Assembly: GCF_003790525.1 (NCBI RefSeq)
Contig: NZ_CP033635.1
DNA: 64,000 nt
Direction: 5' to 3' (one strand)
DNA from: Escherichia coli
Lineage (GTDB): Bacteria; Pseudomonadota; Gammaproteobacteria; Enterobacterales; Enterobacteriaceae
Made by a program: the position numbers and the translations under genes. The notes beneath the pieces are model-generated. The model was not told the DNA's origin and did not search any database. It worked only from the letters and a program-made list of their open reading frames with translations. How positions within the stretch are numbered: the stretch's first letter is position 1; every line of letters begins with the position of its first letter. Below are positions 5,030 to 51,474 of the stretch, piece by piece.

Positions 5030-5289
5030 GGACTGTGCCGGAATGATTGTCTGTTCCGAAGCTGCTGAACCGCGACATAAATTTTTTATGTTGCGGTGAA
5101 GCAGCCGGCAAACGAAGAGCGTCAGCGTATCAACAGTTAAGGAAAATATCTTCTGAAGCCGGACGCGACAGTCAGTCCGGTGGTGCTCGTGTGGTGAAGT
5201 GTTTAGCCTGCATCTTTGACAGGGTTCAGTTATAAGCATTTCGGAAACCGTTCCCCGGCGCAGTCTGCCGGGATTTAAGGAGTTTATTT

Positions 5290-6555
5290 ATGGCGCTACC
5301 TGCAGAAAGCCTTATTGCGCATACGCTCAGAAAAATGAAGGCCAGCATGGCAGAGAAAGCCAGTCGTGAGGACGGGAGGATACGCAGTGGGCTGTTGTTT
5401 ACCGGCAATGTTCACGATTCGTATCCCCGCAGGCTGTTGCTGGATACGCGCCTTTCTCCCCTTGATAAAACTGCGTGGATGATGATTCGTCTGCATGCCC
5501 TGAATAATGAGGGCGCAGTATTTCCGACGTACGATGAACTGCAGTTACAACTGGCATCTCCCGGGTGCGGGAAGGCGTCCCGTGAAACAGTGAGCCGGGT
5601 GCTGACAATGCTGCGGCTTACGGGCTGGCTGAGTCTGTGTAAGCGGGTCAGGGATGAAAAAGGGCGGGTCCGGGGGAATATTTACGCCCTGCATGATGAG
5701 CCACTGACCTGCTGTGATGCAGAAAAGTTTGACCCACGATACCTGGATATGGTTCTGGATACTGTGAGCAGGAGCCGGAACAAGACAATCCGGCACACAG
5801 CCAGTGAAGTGCTCAGTGATATCAAAAATGAGCCCGGTATGCGGCATTACCACAGCCATATCACTCTGTTTGAATCGCGTATGGGGGCAGCACAGACACC
5901 TGGTCAGCTGGCGGCGCGTCAGCGGGTGAACCCGATGGTGAATGAAAACACAGGCAGAGAGAGTGGTTCGGATTCCGTACATACCCCTGCACCTGTCGTG
6001 CAGGTAACCGAACTCAGTGCTCCGTTAACCGAACTCAGTGAAAAACAGGAAATGAGCCCACTCAGTTCGGATTCCGTACCGCCTGAAAAATCAGTAACTT
6101 ATCACTCGGTTCGGAAACCGAACAATTACGTACGTAATATCACACACAGTGTGATTAAAAATACGTACGTATTGCCTGAGTCGGTGAAATCGCAAATCAG
6201 CACAGAAGACACGGACATGCTGACAAAACAACTGCAGGCGTTGCCGGAAGAACTGGCAGGTAGTGTGCTGAGCAGCCTGTCACAGATGCTCAGCAAAAAC
6301 ACGCTCCAGAATCCGGTTGGCTGGATGCTGGCTGTGATGAAACGTGCGCGTGAGGGAAGTTTTAATACGCCGGATATGTCCGTGCATGAATCCCGGTCGC
6401 CAGCCCGTGCACCATATCAGCCTGTGTACAACCGTGATGAACGTGAACGTCGTCGCAGGAAAGTGGCGTCACCTGAAACGGTGAGCAACATTGTCGCAGA
6501 ATTCCGTGCCAGCCTGAAACGTGCAAATGCTGCCCGTCTGGCGGCGCGTGTTTGA
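5290..6555 (+). CDS. STY4528-family pathogenicity-island replication protein (putative)
   Basis: 421-aa ORF with AGGAG RBS; family name from memory; immediately followed by iteron-like tandem array. Confidence 0.45.
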   Translation: MALPAESLIAHTLRKMKASMAEKASREDGRIRSGLLFTGNVHDSYPRRLLLDTRLSPLDKTAWMMIRLHALNNEGAVFPTYDELQLQLASPGCGKASRETVSRVLTMLRLTGWLSLCKRVRDEKGRVRGNIYALHDEPLTCCDAEKFDPRYLDMVLDTVSRSRNKTIRHTASEVLSDIKNEPGMRHYHSHITLFESRMGAAQTPGQLAARQRVNPMVNENTGRESGSDSVHTPAPVVQVTELSAPLTELSEKQEMSPLSSDSVPPEKSVTYHSVRKPNNYVRNITHSVIKNTYVLPESVKSQISTEDTDMLTKQLQALPEELAGSVLSSLSQMLSKNTLQNPVGWMLAVMKRAREGSFNTPDMSVHESRSPARAPYQPVYNRDERERRRRKVASPETVSNIVAEFRASLKRANAARLAARV

Positions 6556-18714: not shown

Positions 18715-20831
18715 TGAGCAACCGCTATGTCATTGAGGCATTGCTGAGACCGGCTGTGGAGTTCAATACGGCAGTGGTGGCAGCAACAGCAGCATGTATC
18801 TGTGTGACAGCCCCCTGGGCGGTGGCGCTGGCACCCACCGTCAGTTACGCCACTGCCGGTGGATTTGCCCTGCTGGCCGTGGTGCGTTTCCGGCAGGGGA
18901 TGAACATCATCCGGTATCGCCGTAATCTGCGCCGGCTGCCCCGCTATGTGATGAGTACACGGCAGATCCCGCTCAGCCGTCAGCGGCTGTTTCTGGGGCG
19001 GGGATTTCGCTGGACCCAGAAGCATACCCAGCGTCTCCAGGATACGCTGCGACCGGAGGTGGCACACTATCTGCAGCCGGGCGGACTTTACCGGCTGGCG
19101 CGCTGGCTGGAAATGAAAACGGAACACCGTCTGCCCGCGCTGGGGAAACTGCTCCGGCATGAGTCGTCTCTGAATCCTGTGCGTCCTCTGCCGCCGGTGG
19201 GGGGAAATCCCGCCCTGCATGGTATTGAGCCGGATGAACAGGATGTGACGCTGGCTCTGGGGGAGCGTGTGGGGCATACCATTGTCTACGGCACCACCCG
19301 TGTCGGTAAAACCCGCCTGGCAGAACTGCTGGTCACTCAGGATATCCGCAGGGGAGAGGTGACCATTGTGTTTGATCCCAAAGGTGATGCTGATCTGCTG
19401 CTGCGTGTCTGGGCGGAAGCACACCGTGCCGGGCGGGGTGATGAACTGTATATTTTCCATCTGGGATGGCCGGAAATTTCGGCCCGATATAATGCGGTGG
19501 GACGCTTCGGGCGTGTTTCGGAAGTGGCTTCTCGTGTGGCCGGGCAGTTGTCCGGTGAAGGGAACTCTGCGGCTTTCCGCGAGTTCGCCTGGCGGTTCGT
19601 CAACATCATTTCCCGCGCCCTGGTGGCACTCGGTGAGCGCCCGGACTACCTGCTGATTGTGCGGTATGTGAACAACATAGCCGATCTCTATATCCGCTAT
19701 GCCGGAAAGGTGATCCGCGAGCGCATGCCGGAACTGGAGCAGGCGATTGCGAATAACCAGAATGTGATCAGCGAGGAGGATGTTCCCCGCACCATGCAGA
19801 ACCAGCCGGATGCGGTACGTATCTGGTCCATCGAGATGGCCCTGAGCAGTGAGGAGGGTAAAAAAATTTACGATCCGATCCTGGACGGGCTTCGCAGTGC
19901 GGTCCGCTATGACCGTACCTATTTTGACAAAATCGTGGCGTCCCTGCTGCCGCTGCTGGAAAAACTCACCACGGGCAGGATCGCAGAGCTGCTGGCACCG
20001 GACTATCTGGACATGAACGATGCGCGACCGATTTTTGACTGGGAACAGGTGATCCGTAAAAAGGCGGTGGTCTATATCGGCCTGGATGCACTCAGCGACA
20101 GTGTGGTAGCCAGTGCTGTGGGGAATTCGATGTTTGCGGACCTGGTGAGCGTGGCGGGGCATATCTACAAGCACGGCATGCATGCCGGTCTGCCCGGTAA
20201 GGGGGAAGGCAAAAATGTGGTGAACCTGCACTGCGATGAGTTTAACGAACTGATGGGGGATGAGTTTATTCCGCTCATTAACAAGGGGGGCGGTGCCGGT
20301 ATGCAGGTCACCGCGTACACCCAGACATCGTCAGATATTGAAGCGCGTATCGGTAATGCAGCCAAAACGGCGCAGGTTCAGGGAAACTTCAACAACATGA
20401 TCATGCTGCGTGTCAGGGAGAACAGGACGGCAGAGCTGCTGACCACACAACTGCCTCAGGTGGAGATCTACACCAAGACGCTGGTCTCCGGTCACCAGGA
20501 TACGGCGGACGTGTCTGCCGGTCAGGATTTCACGTCCAGCACCCAGGATCGTGTCGGCACGGTGAAGGTACCTCTGCTGGAGCCGTCAGATATTGTCACC
20601 CTGCCCAAGGGACAGGCGTTTGCCCTGCTGGAAGGGGGGCAGTTGTGGAAAATCCGGATGCCGCTGCCGGCAGGGGATACGGATGACGTGCTGATGCCGG
20701 AGAACATTGCCCGGGTGGCAGAGGCGATGAGACAGAACTATCACACCGGTGAAGGATGGTGGAATGAGCCGCCGTCAGCGCAGGCCGCCGGAACAGATGA
20801 AGGAGGCGGATATGGCGGAAGCGCGTCGTGA
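18714..20831 (+). CDS. traD: conjugative coupling protein (T4CP, TraD/VirD4-like)
   Basis: ATG 18714 after GGAAGGGGGA; N-terminal TM helices; Walker A GTTRVGKT. Confidence 0.85.
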   Translation: MSNRYVIEALLRPAVEFNTAVVAATAACICVTAPWAVALAPTVSYATAGGFALLAVVRFRQGMNIIRYRRNLRRLPRYVMSTRQIPLSRQRLFLGRGFRWTQKHTQRLQDTLRPEVAHYLQPGGLYRLARWLEMKTEHRLPALGKLLRHESSLNPVRPLPPVGGNPALHGIEPDEQDVTLALGERVGHTIVYGTTRVGKTRLAELLVTQDIRRGEVTIVFDPKGDADLLLRVWAEAHRAGRGDELYIFHLGWPEISARYNAVGRFGRVSEVASRVAGQLSGEGNSAAFREFAWRFVNIISRALVALGERPDYLLIVRYVNNIADLYIRYAGKVIRERMPELEQAIANNQNVISEEDVPRTMQNQPDAVRIWSIEMALSSEEGKKIYDPILDGLRSAVRYDRTYFDKIVASLLPLLEKLTTGRIAELLAPDYLDMNDARPIFDWEQVIRKKAVVYIGLDALSDSVVASAVGNSMFADLVSVAGHIYKHGMHAGLPGKGEGKNVVNLHCDEFNELMGDEFIPLINKGGGAGMQVTAYTQTSSDIEARIGNAAKTAQVQGNFNNMIMLRVRENRTAELLTTQLPQVEIYTKTLVSGHQDTADVSAGQDFTSSTQDRVGTVKVPLLEPSDIVTLPKGQAFALLEGGQLWKIRMPLPAGDTDDVLMPENIARVAEAMRQNYHTGEGWWNEPPSAQAAGTDEGGGYGGSAS

Positions 20832-21573
20832 TGCGGAACGCAGCCCGCAGTCCCGGGCGCCCCGTCAGCATGGTCTGCTGTACAATCTGGTGTGGGGCTG
20901 GCCGTGGGCACTGGTGGGGCTGATTTTATCCTCCCTGCTGCTGAGTCTGTTGATTGAGTATGCCGGTATGACGTTTTTCTGGAGTGAGGAGGGGGCGGCG
21001 CACAGCCGCGCTGTCATGAACACGGAGCTGGGCTGGCTGTCAACGGAGTTCACCCGCAGTCTGCTGCTTTCCGCGCCGGCAGAAACGGTGCCGGCGTGGA
21101 TTTCCGCCGCGTATCAGTGGCTGTTTGTGGACAGTGGCATGCAGACATGGCTGCATGCACAGCAGGCGGGGACGGCGGCAGGCAGAAGCGTGTCTGAATT
21201 CAGCAGTGAGCTGAGTCAGTGGCTGGCTTATCATCTTCATGACTACCTGCTGGCGACGGTGTATGTGACGGTGGTGACGATGGTCAGGGTGGTTATTCTC
21301 GTCCTGTCCGTTCCGTTGTTTGTGATGGTGGTTCTGGTGGCCGTTGTGGAGGGGCTGGGGCGCCGTGATTTGCGGCGTTACGGCGCGGCTTATGAGTCCA
21401 GCTTTGTCTATCATCATGCAAAAAAATCAGTCAGACCGGCGATTTATGTCCCCTGCATTATTTACCTTTCCTGGCCCGGCGCGGTATATCCGAACCTGCT
21501 GATATGGCCGGCGGCCATGCTGCTGGGACTGGCGGTTACCGTGACTGTGGCATCGTTCAAAAAATATCTCTGA
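20812..21573 (+). CDS. conserved ICE integral membrane protein
   Basis: ATG 20812 preceded by AGGAGG; multiple TM helices; track ORF starts earlier at 20749 inside traD. Confidence 0.5.
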   Translation: MAEARRDAERSPQSRAPRQHGLLYNLVWGWPWALVGLILSSLLLSLLIEYAGMTFFWSEEGAAHSRAVMNTELGWLSTEFTRSLLLSAPAETVPAWISAAYQWLFVDSGMQTWLHAQQAGTAAGRSVSEFSSELSQWLAYHLHDYLLATVYVTVVTMVRVVILVLSVPLFVMVVLVAVVEGLGRRDLRRYGAAYESSFVYHHAKKSVRPAIYVPCIIYLSWPGAVYPNLLIWPAAMLLGLAVTVTVASFKKYL

Positions 21574-21656
21574 TTCATGCGCCGGACACCCCGGTGCAAA
21601 ACGTGTTTTGTGGCGGGGTGTCGGCAGACAAGCCACGTACTGACTGTCACAGCGCG

Positions 21657-21848
21657 TCAGCGTAAGAGCACCGGCAGCAAGGGAATGACAACAATGGTGA
21701 TGACGATGATGAGCAGGTTGATGCCCCTGATGACGTCATATAACCAGACAGGGCACTGTGGCTCTTCCCTGACGATATATAACACAACAAAAAACCAGGT
21801 AAGACTGAACAGGGCCCGGTACGGAAGGGCGGTGAGGAGAAATTCCAT
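21657..21848 (-). CDS. small two-helix membrane protein (hypothetical)
   Basis: 63-aa ORF with AAGAGGAAA RBS 8 nt upstream; antisense to the tra string. Confidence 0.35.
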   Translation of the reverse strand: MEFLLTALPYRALFSLTWFFVVLYIVREEPQCPVWLYDVIRGINLLIIVITIVVIPLLPVLLR

Positions 21849-22091
21849 GCTGATGTTTCCTCTTTACGGGGGGTCATTAGCGGGAAACTGTAGTGATGAC
21901 CTGTTTCAGTAAACAGAAAAAATCATTAAAGATGGAATAAAATTGCGCCCCGGCGCGGGGATATGTTCCGGCATTCAGCCATGTCCGTTTTCCCTTAAAA
22001 ATTTTCAGTTTTACAAATAGAGTTTATCGCTGACCGGCACACCTGCCTTCTTCATGCTGTACGCACCCACAGATTCTTAACGGAGGTGCGT

Positions 22092-22433
22092 ATGTTTTCT
22101 CTTCCCGCATTTCCCCGGCGTGCCGCTGCCCTGGCAGGTACTACCGGGATGATGCTTCTTGCCATTGTGGCTGTGCCGGCTCAGGCCGCCGAAAAGGATG
22201 AGCTGGCAACGGCCATGCGCCAGCTTGACCAGGTACGGGCGGCGCTTGACCGTGCCAGAACGGCATCCCTTCAGGCCACGCCTCATGACGGGCGTTATTT
22301 CTTCGACTACCCGCGCGCACAGGCTGACATTCAGACCATGCAGGCGGGTATTGACCGTTATCTCACGCCGTCCCGTGCCCAGCCCCGAAACGGCAGTGCC
22401 GTGACCGGTGAATACCGGCGGGAGCGTCCCTGA
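22092..22433 (+). CDS. conserved ICE periplasmic protein
   Basis: ATG 22092 preceded by GGAGG; signal peptide. Confidence 0.45.
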   Translation: MFSLPAFPRRAAALAGTTGMMLLAIVAVPAQAAEKDELATAMRQLDQVRAALDRARTASLQATPHDGRYFFDYPRAQADIQTMQAGIDRYLTPSRAQPRNGSAVTGEYRRERP

Positions 22434-35221: not shown

Positions 35222-35467
35222 TTAATATCGATCGTATGAATTAACGATGTTGATGGGACCACCTTTTGATTCAATCCAGCCCTCGCTATCTCCATATGAC
35301 CGGATTTTTACAAGTTCAATATCGTTCTTGTTTTTTTCATTGCAAGTAGAGTCTGGTCCAGCGTTAGACAAAACCGCGCAAACAGCTTTTTTCAGCAGAG
35401 AGCTGAAAGTCCATGGGGTATCAGAGGTTTTGCAACTCCACATTGCTTTTTCTGTTTCATTGGTCAT
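35222..35467 (-). CDS. hypothetical small protein
   Basis: 81-aa ORF with AGGAGG RBS 6 nt upstream. Confidence 0.4.
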   Translation of the reverse strand: MTNETEKAMWSCKTSDTPWTFSSLLKKAVCAVLSNAGPDSTCNEKNKNDIELVKIRSYGDSEGWIESKGGPINIVNSYDRY

Positions 35468-49437: not shown

Positions 49438-51474
49438 TTAGTTCCTTACCACCAAATCTAAATCAATAGATTTTTTATTAGCATAACTTTTTAGTGCTTC
49501 ATTGAGTTCCATCTGTTTCGCACTTTCGAAGTTGCTGCCATAAAATACAACTTTGTTAGGGGCAAAGTCTTTGTCTGCATCCAGCTTTTGAAGTAAAGCT
49601 TTCAAAGCCTCACTTGTGAAATTAGGCGCAATTAGATATAGCCGACCATCGCACAAGTGTGCTTTGTAGCCATTAAGGTCAATATCTTCAATTGGTGTTG
49701 TTAGCAAGCTGCCATCATACACGCACCATGTCGTCAATAGAGTGTCATACTGCTCTGGTGTCAATACAGCATCGTCAAAGAAACTAAGATTAGAAAGCGT
49801 AAGTTCAGACTCATCTTTCACTCGAAAATTATGAACTGTTTCAAATATTTTAAATCCCAAATCTCCATTATAATTAGGATTATCTTTTTTCAGCTTTTTT
49901 CCTGCCTTAATAATTCTGTCTTTTGTTATATTGAAGATGGATTTATACCCTTCTTTATAGGCTTGTTTCTTTTTATCTGTTTCTTCATCTAATTGAACAC
50001 AGATGAAGTTTCTTTTCCTGCCGTCTTCAATATTTAACTCCAGAATACCATGAGCTGTAGTTCCAGAGCCAGCAAAAAAGTCAAGATAAATGTCTTTATC
50101 TTCGGCTTTTACTGAACCAAATAGTGTTTTTATTAAACTTGTTGGCTTCGGGTAGGAGAAATATCCTTTCCCACCAAAAAGATTTTCAACCTCAACACCA
50201 CCATCACTTTTAGTTGAAATAATTGATCTTAGTAAAAACTCTTCAACTTCATCTAAAAATTTAACCGAACTGGGTTGGGTGTTTTCTGTACTGGCAAACC
50301 AAATTCCACCACAAATAACGCTACCATCATGTAGTTTTTTGATATCTGCATACTTTCCATCTATTCTTTTTGCAATATGATTAAAAGTGCCTTCTTTCCA
50401 ACGCCAGCCTCTGTCTGGGATTTTGACAGGGTTATTAGTCAAAGGGTGCAATACTTCATACGTGGGTCCAAATGAATCTGCATTAGGCCAGCTCATATTA
50501 ATTTTACCCCATGGCCTATAATCTTCGTTCAAACAGTTGTAAAGAGTAATTCCACGATCATATCCGTTGGAGCTGTAGAATTTTTTGAGTTGCTGCTCTG
50601 CTTTATCTAATGGCACCTTCTCCTTTTTTAACTTTTCAATAAACTGATATACATCATCAATACCATCTTTCCGCATTAAAAATTCTTTACTTATTTCGTT
50701 ATTCTTCGCATAAGCAAGGATGTACTCATGGATATTACCAATACCCTTATCATTTTTAGGGATACGTTTATTCCATACAATATTTTCTATGAAATTTGCT
50801 TCGCCAAAAATTTCATCACAAATAGTTTTAAGTTGATTTAATTCATTTTCGTCAATCGAAATAAATATCACACCATCTTCACGTAGAAGCTCACGAGCAA
50901 TATATAAACGAGGATAAATGAACGTTAACCATGCGCTATGGCTGCTTGAACCATTCGTGGTAAATTCAAGTATACGTTTAGCCTCATCAAGATCGATACC
51001 TGCCAGATCAGAAAGCTGTTCAGGTGTAAACTTGCGATCATCGTTATAGGCGAATCCATCCTTACCTGTATTGTATGGTGGATCAATGTAAATCATCTTC
51101 ACCTTTTCAGAGTAAGCATTAACCATATGCTTCAATACTTCGAGGTTATCCCCTTTGATTAACAGATTCTGACTGTTTTTGTTCTCTTCACGTTGGTTAT
51201 GGTCTTTATCTTCGGAGAGTAATGTCTTCGGCGGCAAGTTAGCTAACAGACGGGCATAGGATTTACCAAGCCAGTTCAGGCTGTATGATTCTTTGGAGAG
51301 TTCAACATCCGATGATTTGACGATTTCAAGCAATTTTTCCTGAATGAACGCTCCATTTTTATCAAAACACTGTGGAAAGTTAGCCTTTAAAATCGCAAGC
51401 TGTTTACTGTTTGTGGTTTCAGTTTCAGAGAAAAGAGTTTCTTTTTTCAGTTGAAATTGGGGTTGTGTATTCAT
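49438..51474 (-). CDS. mod: Type III R-M N6-adenine methyltransferase Mod
   Basis: DPPY motif (IYIDPPYNTG) before FxGxG motif (LDFFAGSGTTAHG); N-terminus resembles EcoP15I-type Mod; GGAGGT RBS. Confidence 0.88.
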   Translation of the reverse strand: MNTQPQFQLKKETLFSETETTNSKQLAILKANFPQCFDKNGAFIQEKLLEIVKSSDVELSKESYSLNWLGKSYARLLANLPPKTLLSEDKDHNQREENKNSQNLLIKGDNLEVLKHMVNAYSEKVKMIYIDPPYNTGKDGFAYNDDRKFTPEQLSDLAGIDLDEAKRILEFTTNGSSSHSAWLTFIYPRLYIARELLREDGVIFISIDENELNQLKTICDEIFGEANFIENIVWNKRIPKNDKGIGNIHEYILAYAKNNEISKEFLMRKDGIDDVYQFIEKLKKEKVPLDKAEQQLKKFYSSNGYDRGITLYNCLNEDYRPWGKINMSWPNADSFGPTYEVLHPLTNNPVKIPDRGWRWKEGTFNHIAKRIDGKYADIKKLHDGSVICGGIWFASTENTQPSSVKFLDEVEEFLLRSIISTKSDGGVEVENLFGGKGYFSYPKPTSLIKTLFGSVKAEDKDIYLDFFAGSGTTAHGILELNIEDGRKRNFICVQLDEETDKKKQAYKEGYKSIFNITKDRIIKAGKKLKKDNPNYNGDLGFKIFETVHNFRVKDESELTLSNLSFFDDAVLTPEQYDTLLTTWCVYDGSLLTTPIEDIDLNGYKAHLCDGRLYLIAPNFTSEALKALLQKLDADKDFAPNKVVFYGSNFESAKQMELNEALKSYANKKSIDLDLVVRN

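Follow-up and report, generated by a model that had tools for sequence, protein, structure and literature searches.

A 63-aa open reading frame on the minus strand of an Escherichia coli conjugative element (positions 21657-21848 of the window, as we call the whole 64,000-nt stretch of DNA analysed) is very likely a real protein-coding gene that is translated. The explanation that accounts best for it, with a probability of about 0.4 for the reading as a whole, is that it encodes a helical hairpin of the inner membrane, carried as an accessory passenger gene by an ICE and acting in a protective or exclusion-like manner. Its present standing is that of an uncharacterised, often-broken passenger gene.

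The ORF lies in a 518-bp gap between two plus-strand genes. On the left, and convergent with it, is the gene for a TIGR03747/DUF4400 (DtrJ-like) ICE membrane protein (20812-21573), whose stop at 21573 begins the gap; on the right is the gene for a RAQPRD-family ICE protein (22092-22433), which starts at 22092 and opens the downstream T4SS operon. An initial annotation, made from the sequence alone, had placed the ORF in a 500-bp gap between plus-strand tra genes, in agreement with this layout, and had called it antisense; the opposite orientation stands, but the ORF overlaps no tra coding sequence, and "antisense" here means the opposite strand in an intergenic gap. The genes for TraD (TIGR03754), TIGR03747/DUF4400, RAQPRD (TIGR01690), TIGR03758 and TIGR03745 are syntenic and all score above the curated cut-offs, a context characteristic of the SPI-7/ICEEc2/pKLC102/ICEclc type of ICE (MPF-G conjugation module). 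RefSeq (PGAP) annotates the ORF as the CDS of hypothetical protein WP_000394957.1. The record of E. coli GF60, identical to the window over an 801-bp query and in agreement with it in local coordinates, carries the same PGAP CDS, and its annotation includes ICE replication proteins of the STY4528 and STY4534 families.

Translation from the ATG yields exactly the 63 aa reported earlier, MEFLLTALPYRALFSLTWFFVVLYIVREEPQCPVWLYDVIRGINLLIIVITIVVIPLLPVLLR, here assigned to subtype W1. An in-frame TAA lies six codons 5' of the ATG, which is therefore the earliest possible start. The Shine-Dalgarno (SD) sequence AAGAGGAAA (21856-21864, minus strand) is found 7 nt before the ATG, bearing out the good ribosome-binding site that had been noted; it is kept in W2 alleles and reads AGGAGGAAAC in the B30 allele. 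By length alone an ORF of 63 codons is within chance, and what goes beyond chance is its hydrophobicity, its GC periodicity, the conserved SD and start, and the homologues in syntenic position, among which one subtype evolves under purifying selection. GC content at the three codon positions is 0.52/0.31/0.69, the value at the third position (GC3) being that of the neighbouring tra gene. The overlapping plus-strand ORF (21577-21912, 111 aa) has no credible family (NCBIfam SufS matches at chance level, E = 0.01, with 14.9 bits vs a cut-off of 661) and is broken into pieces of 39-43 aa in a related allele, and it is therefore judged spurious, as had been suspected.

The encoded protein has two hydrophobic segments (approximately residues 11-27 and 36-63 by Kyte-Doolittle), and its GRAVY of 1.37 exceeds that of every other ATG-initiated ORF of 50-90 aa in the window (130 ORFs; mean -0.17, sd 0.53). 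Given the family alignment, AlphaFold2 predicts helices at residues 8-28 and 34-62 (mean pLDDT 79), so that both methods back the two transmembrane (TM) helices first proposed. The hairpin loop of W1 is EEPQCPVW, and the chain ends in ...PVLLR, with a single Arg and without a charged tail. In the predicted arrangement the 63-aa protein would form an inner-membrane helical hairpin whose two termini probably face the cytoplasm, with a short and acidic loop on the periplasmic side that bears an invariant E-x3-P-x-W motif. The best Foldseek match of the predicted hairpin against the PDB has an E-value of 2.9, which makes the fold search uninformative.

On sequence comparison the protein is placed in a narrow putative family of small hairpins, newly defined here, with subtypes W (this ORF), A and B. 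Members have 60-73 aa, two hydrophobic helices and the E-x3-P-x-W loop, which is invariant in all subtypes; residues M1, W18, E29, P33, W35, I43 and P56 (window numbering) are invariant across W, A and B. Intact members are recovered with profile E-values of 1e-26 to 1e-12, and the window ORF shows all the defining features. Every intact homologue for which the context was fetched (loci L023-L036) is antisense between a DUF4400 and a RAQPRD gene, and so a check that the initial annotation had proposed, a search of related ICEs for homologues in this position, comes out in favour of conservation. A profile search of 1.84e9 representatives, together with word-indexed searches, finds relatives only in Escherichia and Salmonella, plus one record labelled Vagococcus, and the family is very probably confined to conjugative islands of the SPI-7/ICEEc2 type in E. 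coli and Salmonella. The exact W1 protein is present on at least 1000 contigs. Scans of all subtypes against Pfam, NCBIfam, PADLOC and PHROGs give nothing significant: in Pfam and NCBIfam there is no match at E ≤ 0.1 for W1, nor for the remaining subtypes at E ≤ 1, and PADLOC-DB gives one match, to the CARF_TM model for W2 (E = 0.056), and none for W1, A or B. No match is found by tblastn of W1 against plasmid and phage collections or of B against plasmids, and the sole match of a plasmid DNA search is an unrelated 66-bp stretch. Literature searches on the accessions, RAQPRD, ICEEc2, ICEclc exclusion and SPI-7 small proteins bring up no paper that mentions the ORF.

The gene is absent from ICEs of Pantoea, Erwinia, Edwardsiella, Rosenbergiella, Mixta, Chimaeribacter, Halomonas/Vreelandella and two Burkholderiales MAGs, in which the gap ranges from 47 bp to >3 kb and holds mostly unrelated ORFs; in E. 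coli 8178 it measures 254 bp, without such an ORF. In relatives the same gap holds SocA/Panacea antitoxin modules and other cargo. The gap is thus a cargo hotspot, which marks the gene as accessory rather than part of the T4SS, and we consider it likely that it is dispensable for transfer. In ICEclc, the model ICE of this MPF-G family, the same gap is filled by orf67800, which is listed in Table 1 of the ICEclc study as not required for transfer (PMC10018362). Like the gene described here, orf67800 is flanked by a DUF4400 gene (orf68241) and a RAQPRD gene (orf67231) and has no database match, but it encodes 134 aa with no predicted TM helices (table in PMC10018362) and is unrelated in sequence to the small hairpin, whose family is absent from the Pseudomonas-type relatives sampled. 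A role as T4SS pilin (VirB2/TraA-like) was considered and rejected, since the protein has no leader peptide and its gene lies on the opposite strand and is missing from many ICEs of the family; the downstream TIGR03745 gene (iceB2 in ICEclc) probably fills this role. As a passenger on the opposite strand, the gene would occupy the fixed right-hand end of the hotspot, between the hairpin on the DUF4400 side and the RAQPRD promoter region.

The hairpin on the DUF4400 side belongs to a conserved module (21581-21660) that lies between the DUF4400 stop and the stop of the small ORF and gives the variable gap its fixed left border. It consists of a 19-bp interrupted stem-loop (21581-21625), an invariant CAGACAAGCC (21625-21634) and an invariant GCGCGTCAG (21652-21660), inside which lies the TGA of the small ORF. 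The stem covaries, with 98% of cells paired, compensatory changes in 7 of the 19 pairs and an observed score reached by 0 of 500 shuffles, and it is not followed by a U-tract. In locus L023 the right half of the module is duplicated around a 316-aa gene. The module was considered as a recombination site flanking cargo, and this was not retained, since no duplication of the L023 type was found at other cargo-bearing loci.

Upstream of the small ORF, a conserved block of ~80 nt (21865-21943, minus strand) lies in front of the first small ORF in each of the subtypes, with invariant columns across W1, W2, W2b, B30 and A, and is probably its leader and/or promoter. Within it are a palindrome CTGTTTACTGAAACAG (21901-21916), a -10-like TACAGT (21887-21892) and, at 21883-21888, a box GTTTCC that complements the SD, and over its distal ~25 nt it shows homology to the 3' terminus of a ~190-aa gene of relatives (p190). 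The block accompanies the ORF even where other genes part the ORF from the RAQPRD gene, and with this block of its own the small gene presumably does not depend on the transfer operons for its expression. A GC hairpin, CCCCGCGCCGGGG followed by CGCAATTTTATT (21936-21960, minus strand), can be read from the sequence where it adjoins the block on the upstream side; it is seen in this ICE lineage alone, in an indel-rich region that is not conserved in loci L002-L004, and it looks terminator-like on the minus strand, though the consensus terminator scan did not flag it. Further upstream and divergent from the small ORF, a conserved plus-strand block CCCTTAAAAATTTTCAGTTTTACAAATAGAGTTTATCGCTGA (21992-22036) precedes the RAQPRD gene and, by analogy with promoter P67231 of ICEclc (PMC10018362), is likely the counterpart of that promoter region. 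A consensus scan of both strands finds no sigma-70 promoter and no promoter- or terminator-like site, and the matches of a relaxed promoter scan reach 8 of 12 positions at best and are not conserved between alleles. GTTTCC/GGAAAC pairing with the SD is predicted in W1; the complement is present in W2 and B30, where the B30 leader offers a perfect 8-nt complement. RNAalifold on the leader finds no conserved structure, just a 5-bp palindrome; z is -1.55, and the fold z-scores overall are -1.2 to -1.6. No Rfam match above chance is found for an antisense sRNA; sX8, at 18 bits vs a gathering score of 50, was rejected as a chance match whose structure differs from the real hairpin and which is absent from related loci.

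In fuller versions of the locus in relatives, the same leader block heads up to three membrane-protein genes (p190, A and B), and the gene in the window is the lone remainder of this larger accessory module. The p190 gene, which stands ahead of the small genes in some relatives, encodes a ~190-aa protein with two TM helices (AlphaFold2 pLDDT 62) and is absent in the window. Its 3' remnants, 19-23 codons long, lie directly 5' of W2 alleles, and ~25 nt of similarity are left in the window. Family scans of p190 and other cargo genes of the gap recognise SocA/Panacea alone. It is a speculative and rather improbable proposal that the hairpin proteins and p190 form an unrecognised ICE-borne membrane module, either an exclusion or defence device or a self-limiting toxin, whose expression would follow the transfer state of the ICE by way of the tra operon convergent with it, the covarying hairpin without U-tract and a leader that would occlude the SD; if true, it would link ICE activation to host membrane physiology.

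Subtype B is under purifying selection: its segregating sites fall 6, 4 and 15 on the three codon positions, with 16 synonymous vs 11 non-synonymous changes (p = 1e-4), and its pairwise omega is 0.09-0.5. W and B differ least at the second codon position, and their omega of 0.37-0.65 compares with 0.6-1.4 in off-frame controls. The W allele of the window looks relaxed, under weak constraint and in near-neutral evolution. W1 and W2 differ by 17/15/17 substitutions by codon position with an omega of 0.6-0.8, indistinguishable from off-frame controls; their amino-acid identity and hydropathy conservation are marginally above neutral simulations (p = 0.03-0.28), in which the frame stays open in 22-32% of trials. 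At least 11 of ~70 W-type copies in complete E. coli genomes (~16%) are frameshifted or interrupted, IS junctions and truncated forms are present in the protein database, and rare W1 variants alter invariant tryptophans (W18S, W18C and W35G).

These observations bear on two readings in which the protein has no present role. In one of them the ORF arose by chance in a regulatory spacer, and what is conserved there are DNA or RNA elements, not a protein. The near-neutral W1/W2 substitutions, the several overlapping ORFs in the same stretch and the position of the stop inside a cis motif that is conserved in ICEs without the ORF all fit, but homologues at the same locus are 37-45% identical in protein and ~56-58% in DNA, and together with the selection on subtype B, the GC3 periodicity, the conserved SD and ATG and the extreme hydrophobicity they leave a chance ORF highly improbable. 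The other is a decaying remnant, an unlikely but not negligible reading: with p190 missing, the window copy could be functionless, W1 having once been the downstream gene of the p190 module and, after the loss of p190 and perhaps of its promoter, having become unexpressed and unselected, its frame still open since the copy is young. The p190 traces beside W2 alleles and in the window are consistent with such a history, as are the flat codon-position counts and omega of W1 vs W2, the simulated chance of an open frame, the frameshifted, IS-interrupted and insertion-truncated copies, the substituted tryptophans and the negative promoter scans. Against it, A and B subtypes without p190 (L023, L034) are still under purifying selection; the coding body is less well conserved than the leader block, SD and ATG; at 27% divergence the 192 nt of W1 and W2 have acquired neither an indel nor a stop, although the non-coding DNA on either side is rich in indels; the GC3 periodicity is kept; and L002 and L004 differ by seven synonymous and six non-synonymous changes, an omega of 0.24.

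The preferred reading, a functional accessory hairpin, would have the protein act in the inner membrane of the ICE-bearing cell in a protective, exclusion-like or otherwise membrane-perturbing way; for example, its periplasmic loop might keep foreign DNA, from a phage or a competing element, from entering, as small prophage superinfection-exclusion proteins do. Rapid allelic diversification and tandem paralogues fit this reading, but scans of Pfam, NCBIfam, PADLOC and PHROGs link the protein to none of the known families of exclusion, defence or toxin proteins, and a protective or exclusion-like function, taken by itself, is tentative. T4 Imm is a superinfection-exclusion protein of ~83 aa with two TM helices, and such proteins resemble the one described here as tiny helical inner-membrane products of independently transcribed passenger genes of mobile elements that act in the membrane of the carrier; the likeness is architectural only, as there is no sequence or fold match. 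A small membrane toxin of the type I or GhoT-like kind, whose translation would be limited by a sequestered SD and/or by antisense transcripts reading through from the convergent traD-DUF4400 operon and which would serve ICE maintenance or growth arrest of transfer-competent cells, is less probable still. Type I toxins (Hok, Ldr, TisB, Ibs, ShoB and Fst) have a single TM helix; they share with the window gene a small, very hydrophobic peptide borne by a mobile element, a conserved leader that may occlude the SD (here the GTTTCC(C/T) box complementary to GAGGAAAC) and frequent natural inactivation, the recurrent frameshifts and IS insertions being what mild toxicity would lead one to expect. 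The convergence with the tra operon across a hairpin lacking a U-tract and the toxin-antitoxin modules in the same hotspot of relatives point the same way. The window protein nevertheless has 63 aa and two TM helices with almost no polar tail, vs fewer than ~60 aa and one helix in type I toxins; no Hok, Ldr, Ibs, TisB, Fst or GhoT model in Pfam or NCBIfam matches it; the consensus scan shows on neither strand a promoter-like site for an antisense RNA gene; RNAalifold finds no conserved fold in the leader; and tandem paralogues, and intact copies on thousands of contigs, occur without an identifiable antitoxin, so that the type I label given at the outset finds no backing. The E. coli type V toxin GhoT, with 57 aa and two TM helices, is similar in size, in its two hydrophobic helices and short loop and in lacking a signal peptide, but it has neither the conserved P-x-W loop, the ICE-borne location nor the tandem paralogues of this family, and in the window there is no GhoS-like or other partner gene adjacent on the same strand. 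The suggestion of a holin-like protein fares no better: class II holins and pinholins (S21-68) likewise have ~65-70 aa and two TM segments, but the window ORF lacks a charged C-terminal domain and a dual start, lies among tra genes with no adjacent endolysin or spanin, and has no PHROGs match. Entry exclusion, in which a protein made in ICE-bearing cells blocks a redundant ICE of the same type by contacting a T4SS protein of the donor, had also been put forward and is very unlikely. F TraS and SXT/R391 Eex have ~140-170 aa, and like these and RP4 TrbK the hairpin would be an envelope protein of a conjugative element with discrete, fast-diverging allele types reminiscent of exclusion groups; a predicted inner-membrane site with a conserved exposed loop and a transcription unit of its own, independent of the tra operons, are also in keeping with such a role. 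The review PMC5812530 mentions no exclusion gene in this ICE family. The protein is, on the other hand, two- to three-fold smaller than TraS and Eex, is not a lipoprotein as TrbK is, matches no Eex, TraS or TrbK model, is not encoded beside traG, and is missing from many functional-looking ICEs of the family. ICEs with the same allele also co-reside: the chromosome of E. coli OkiPb01696 holds two ICE copies, 99.7% identical over a 3.3-kb region and both with an intact W2b, possibly through intragenomic duplication, TUM1886 and TUM9803 carry two W1-type copies, and two copies occur in ~10 of ~70 carrier genomes. Moreover, the ORF recombines apart from the flanking T4SS genes, its allele not tracking those of the adjacent DUF4400 and RAQPRD genes; in L004 the ORF is W2-like with 93% nucleotide identity, while the flanks have 70-72% protein identity.

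If the hairpin protein is made and acts in the membrane, it would offer a starting point for finding out what carriers, which include avian-pathogenic and clinical E. coli and S. Typhi, gain from the variable slot that separates the two transfer operons in SPI-7/ICEEc2-type islands, and the small membrane proteins of mobile elements, so far poorly charted, would gain one more family. The practical gains are modest: a family is defined, the tempting labels of entry exclusion, holin and type I toxin, all three unsupported, are removed, and an overlooked allele is noted, which is intact, encodes 61 aa and was missed by the annotation pipeline in ~20 complete genomes.

The window belongs to an integrative conjugative element (ICE) of the SPI-7 / ICEEc2 / pKLC102 / ICEclc type. 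Genes for TraD (TIGR03754, 18714-20831), the TIGR03747/DUF4400 membrane protein (20812-21573) and RAQPRD (22092-22433) score far above the curated cut-offs of their models, as do the TIGR03758 and TIGR03745 genes. Several E. coli chromosomes, mostly from poultry and human isolates, are 100% identical over an 801-bp query around the small ORF (21657-21848, minus strand), and 95 of 5,426 complete E. coli genomes match this query at some level. In E. coli GF60, which is identical over this query, the RefSeq annotation shows ICE genes around the locus, including STY4528 and STY4534 family replication proteins, which are typical of SPI-7-like islands.

The small ORF was placed by the initial annotation in a gap of about 500 bp between tra genes; the DUF4400-RAQPRD gap measures 518 bp, and the ORF overlaps no tra coding sequence. 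Translation reproduces the quoted residues of the 63-aa product, and the good ribosome binding site noted earlier, AAGAGGAAA (21856-21864), lies 7 nt 5' of the ATG, which is the first possible start because an in-frame TAA stands six codons upstream. The two predicted transmembrane (TM) helices are borne out by two hydrophobic segments in the hydropathy profile and by AlphaFold2 prediction with the family alignment (helices 8-28 and 34-62, linker EEPQC, mean pLDDT 79), and the GRAVY of 1.37 is the highest of the 130 ATG-initiated ORFs of 50-90 aa in the window. The overlapping plus-strand ORF (111 aa), rightly regarded as spurious, lacks any credible family match and is broken up in related alleles. 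The identical protein is encoded on at least 1000 contigs; PGAP calls it hypothetical protein WP_000394957.1, and its UniProt entry is D9CH08. Nothing resembling it was found in Pfam, NCBIfam, PADLOC, PHROGs or PDB, the plasmid and phage collections hold no relatives, and no mention of it was found in the literature. A 53-aa ORF among the island's cargo (49831-49992, plus strand) is nearly as hydrophobic (GRAVY 1.36).

A profile search of all 1.84 billion representatives recovers a 73-aa relative (P0013, E = 3e-5), and a second search resolves three subtypes, W (including the window allele, W1), B (71-73 aa) and A (60-62 aa), in E. coli, E. albertii, Salmonella including Typhi, and one record labelled Vagococcus. 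In all members two hydrophobic helices are present and W18, E29, P33, W35 and P56 (window numbering) are invariant, giving a turn motif E-x3-P-x-W and a proline within helix 2; one protein (P0017) bridges subtypes, with a W-like N-terminus and a B-like body. Homologues do occur at the same position in related ICEs: all intact ones for which context was fetched lie antisense between the DUF4400 and RAQPRD genes, with A and B often in tandem. Segregating sites in subtype B fall 6/4/15 by codon position, with 16 synonymous versus 11 non-synonymous changes (binomial p = 1e-4) and pairwise omega of 0.09-0.5; the corresponding changes in subtype A are 8 versus 12 (p = 0.08). When W is compared with B, DNA identity is just 56-58%, the second codon position is the most conserved, and omega is 0.37-0.65 (off-frame controls, 0.6-1.4). 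The GC content of the small ORF by codon position is 0.52/0.31/0.69, its GC3 being that of the adjacent tra gene. Together, the homologues, synteny, selection in B, W-B comparison and codon-position GC make it very probable that the small ORF belongs to a real protein-coding gene family (probability about 0.85). The family is new but narrow, and ordinary as a class, being of the small hydrophobic passenger type carried by mobile elements.

The gene is very probably real, with weak constraint in the W1 allele. E. coli also carries W2 (63 aa, protein 52% identical to W1) and W2b (61 aa, 62% identical). W1 and the second allele group have the same SD, start and stop positions and no indels across 192 nt, where the adjacent spacer has many. 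Substitutions separating W1 from W2 look nearly neutral in pattern (17/15/17 mismatches over the three codon positions, omega 0.6-0.8 as in off-frame controls), compared with 27/8/85 and omega 0.09-0.2 in the flanking tra genes. Neutral simulations, redistributing the observed W1/W2 substitutions at random over the ORF, keep the frame open in 22-32% of trials, and conservation of amino-acid identity and hydropathy exceeds the neutral level only marginally (p = 0.03-0.28). One W2 sub-lineage is frameshifted (L003, L005 and seven more complete genomes), other W-type copies are interrupted or 5'-replaced (overall, at least 11 of ~70 W-type copies in complete genomes are disrupted), the protein database contains IS-junction and truncated versions, and rare W1 variants substitute even the invariant tryptophans. 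The window allele thus appears to be under relaxed constraint. In three W2 protein variants (P0010, P0011, P0007) homology ends at codon ~20-22 and is followed by read-through sequence, which suggests insertions into helix 1; the P0010 ending, ...GGNAANLLI, resembles the translated end of IS1. PGAP annotates the 63-aa W1 and W2 genes but leaves the intact W2b gene unannotated (features under match: 'none') in ~20 complete E. coli genomes, with examples at L004 1769-1951 (-), L037 1551-1733 (+) and L038 1595-1777 (-).

A block of ~80 nt (21865-21943) always lies 5' of the first small ORF in every subtype and stays attached despite intervening genes. Among its elements are a palindrome (CTGTTTACTGAAACAG), a weak TACNGT resembling a -10 element and a GTTTCC box whose sequence is complementary to that of the SD; scans of the block for a consensus promoter or a conserved RNA fold found none. 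Its distal end is the 3' end of p190, a co-oriented gene (177-193 aa) whose product has TM helices at both termini, a helical middle domain and conserved DID, LLAxRWS, RELIxW and SLHDIY motifs, with no match in Pfam, NCBIfam or PADLOC. This gene is intact in L006 (1931-2512, -), L036 (2377-2910, +) and L037/L038 (L038 1884-2450, -), frameshifted in L030, cut down to 19-23 codons 5' of W2 alleles (remnants at L002 2045-2113 and L004 2061-2129), and undetectable by tblastn in the window. The fullest module, p177-A-B in L036, comprises three membrane-protein genes; in the window a single small gene remains. Immediately 5' of the leader block, in this ICE lineage only, a GC hairpin (CCCCGCGCCGGGG) leading into a T-rich stretch (21936-21960, -) looks like a terminator, which would insulate the small ORF from minus-strand transcription from the RAQPRD side. 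The gap of a W2b-type ICE (L004, about 2130-2250) contains tandem copies of a 9-nt repeat, CCCGTATTG, one frame of which reads LPVLPVLPV...

In a cross-genus survey anchored on the DUF4400 protein (one genome per species), no homologue was found in ICEs of Pantoea, Erwinia, Edwardsiella, Rosenbergiella, Mixta, Chimaeribacter, Halomonas/Vreelandella and two Burkholderiales MAGs; their gaps range from 47 bp to >3 kb and hold unrelated ORFs where room allows, often on the opposite strand. Within E. coli, the gap is 254 bp without an ORF in strain 8178, and elsewhere holds IS66, a 316-aa secreted-looking protein, or a Panacea-domain (PGAP name; L020 2895-3873) or SocA-family antitoxin gene (L032 3252-4189; NCBIfam NF047745, E = 6e-25), the latter two each adjoining a small or 153-aa hypothetical gene, which suggests toxin-antitoxin pairs inserted in the hotspot. 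In ICEclc the same gap is filled by the unrelated orf67800, marked as not required for transfer, and the RAQPRD gene has its own BisDC-dependent promoter, P67231 (PMC10018362). These varied contents, together with orf67800, identify the gap as a cargo hotspot, in agreement with reports of defence/anti-defence hotspots adjoining the tra genes of Pseudomonas islands that belong to the same superfamily (PMC12629846). The small ORF is probably an accessory gene.

The initial annotation offered entry exclusion, holin-like and type I toxin roles. Conjugative entry exclusion is disfavoured by the co-residence of same-type ICEs: E. coli OkiPb01696 harbours two copies (NZ_AP042574.1 3563200-3566500 and 5162800-5166100), which share 99.7% identity across the 3.3 kb compared and both carry an intact W2b, but have different TraD and DUF4400 protein accessions; further genomes have two W1-type copies, and two W-type copies occur in ~10 of ~70 carrier genomes. 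Moreover, the allele recombines independently of the adjacent T4SS genes, and the gene is missing from many of the family's ICEs. A holin was rejected, as the charged tail, dual start and lysin are all missing. The defining features of a type I toxin are missing (a single TM helix, an antisense RNA gene or promoter detectable in the sequence, a family match). SD occlusion (by predicted pairing) and convergent transcription would fit a toxin-like protein, a reading that is unlikely.

Small superinfection-exclusion proteins offer an analogy, and this hotspot and others like it contain conflict genes; on these grounds we tentatively prefer a passenger protein that acts at the membrane in a protective or exclusion-like way and would be expressed apart from the transfer genes. 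That the W1 allele is instead a drifting remnant of a larger module is a sizeable alternative.

A more unusual object than the small ORF is the covarying hairpin module at the left edge of the gap (21581-21660), directly after the DUF4400 stop. It consists of a 19-bp interrupted stem-loop (21581-21625) with a conserved CAAAAC...GTTTTG apex, an invariant CAGACAAGCC and, ~20 nt on, an invariant GCGCGTCAG that includes the TGA of the small ORF. The stem shows compensatory changes in 7 of 19 pairs and 98% pairing, and no U-tract is found at the module on either strand. Besides the window, it lies at L011 3760-3850, L012 790-882, L013 3763-3855 and L022 2680-2770. It is common to ICEs of E. coli, Edwardsiella, Erwinia and Rosenbergiella, the last three without the small ORF; in the Pantoea, Chimaeribacter and Halomonas relatives, ordinary terminators take its place. 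Possible roles for the module are an atypical terminator, an element for RNA processing or stabilisation, or a site in single-stranded DNA on the transferred strand. At one locus (L023), and at no other cargo-bearing locus examined, its right half (CAGCAGACAAGCC...GCGCGTCAG) occurs twice (5239-5275 and 6519-6555) around the 316-aa cargo gene, as would result from insertion of the cargo into the module. Elsewhere in the window, an 81-aa hydrophilic opposite-strand ORF (35222-35467, -) directly follows the TraG-N-domain gene, and in E. coli GF60 PGAP annotates a 68-aa minus-strand hypothetical protein at the corresponding site (L029 37642-37848).
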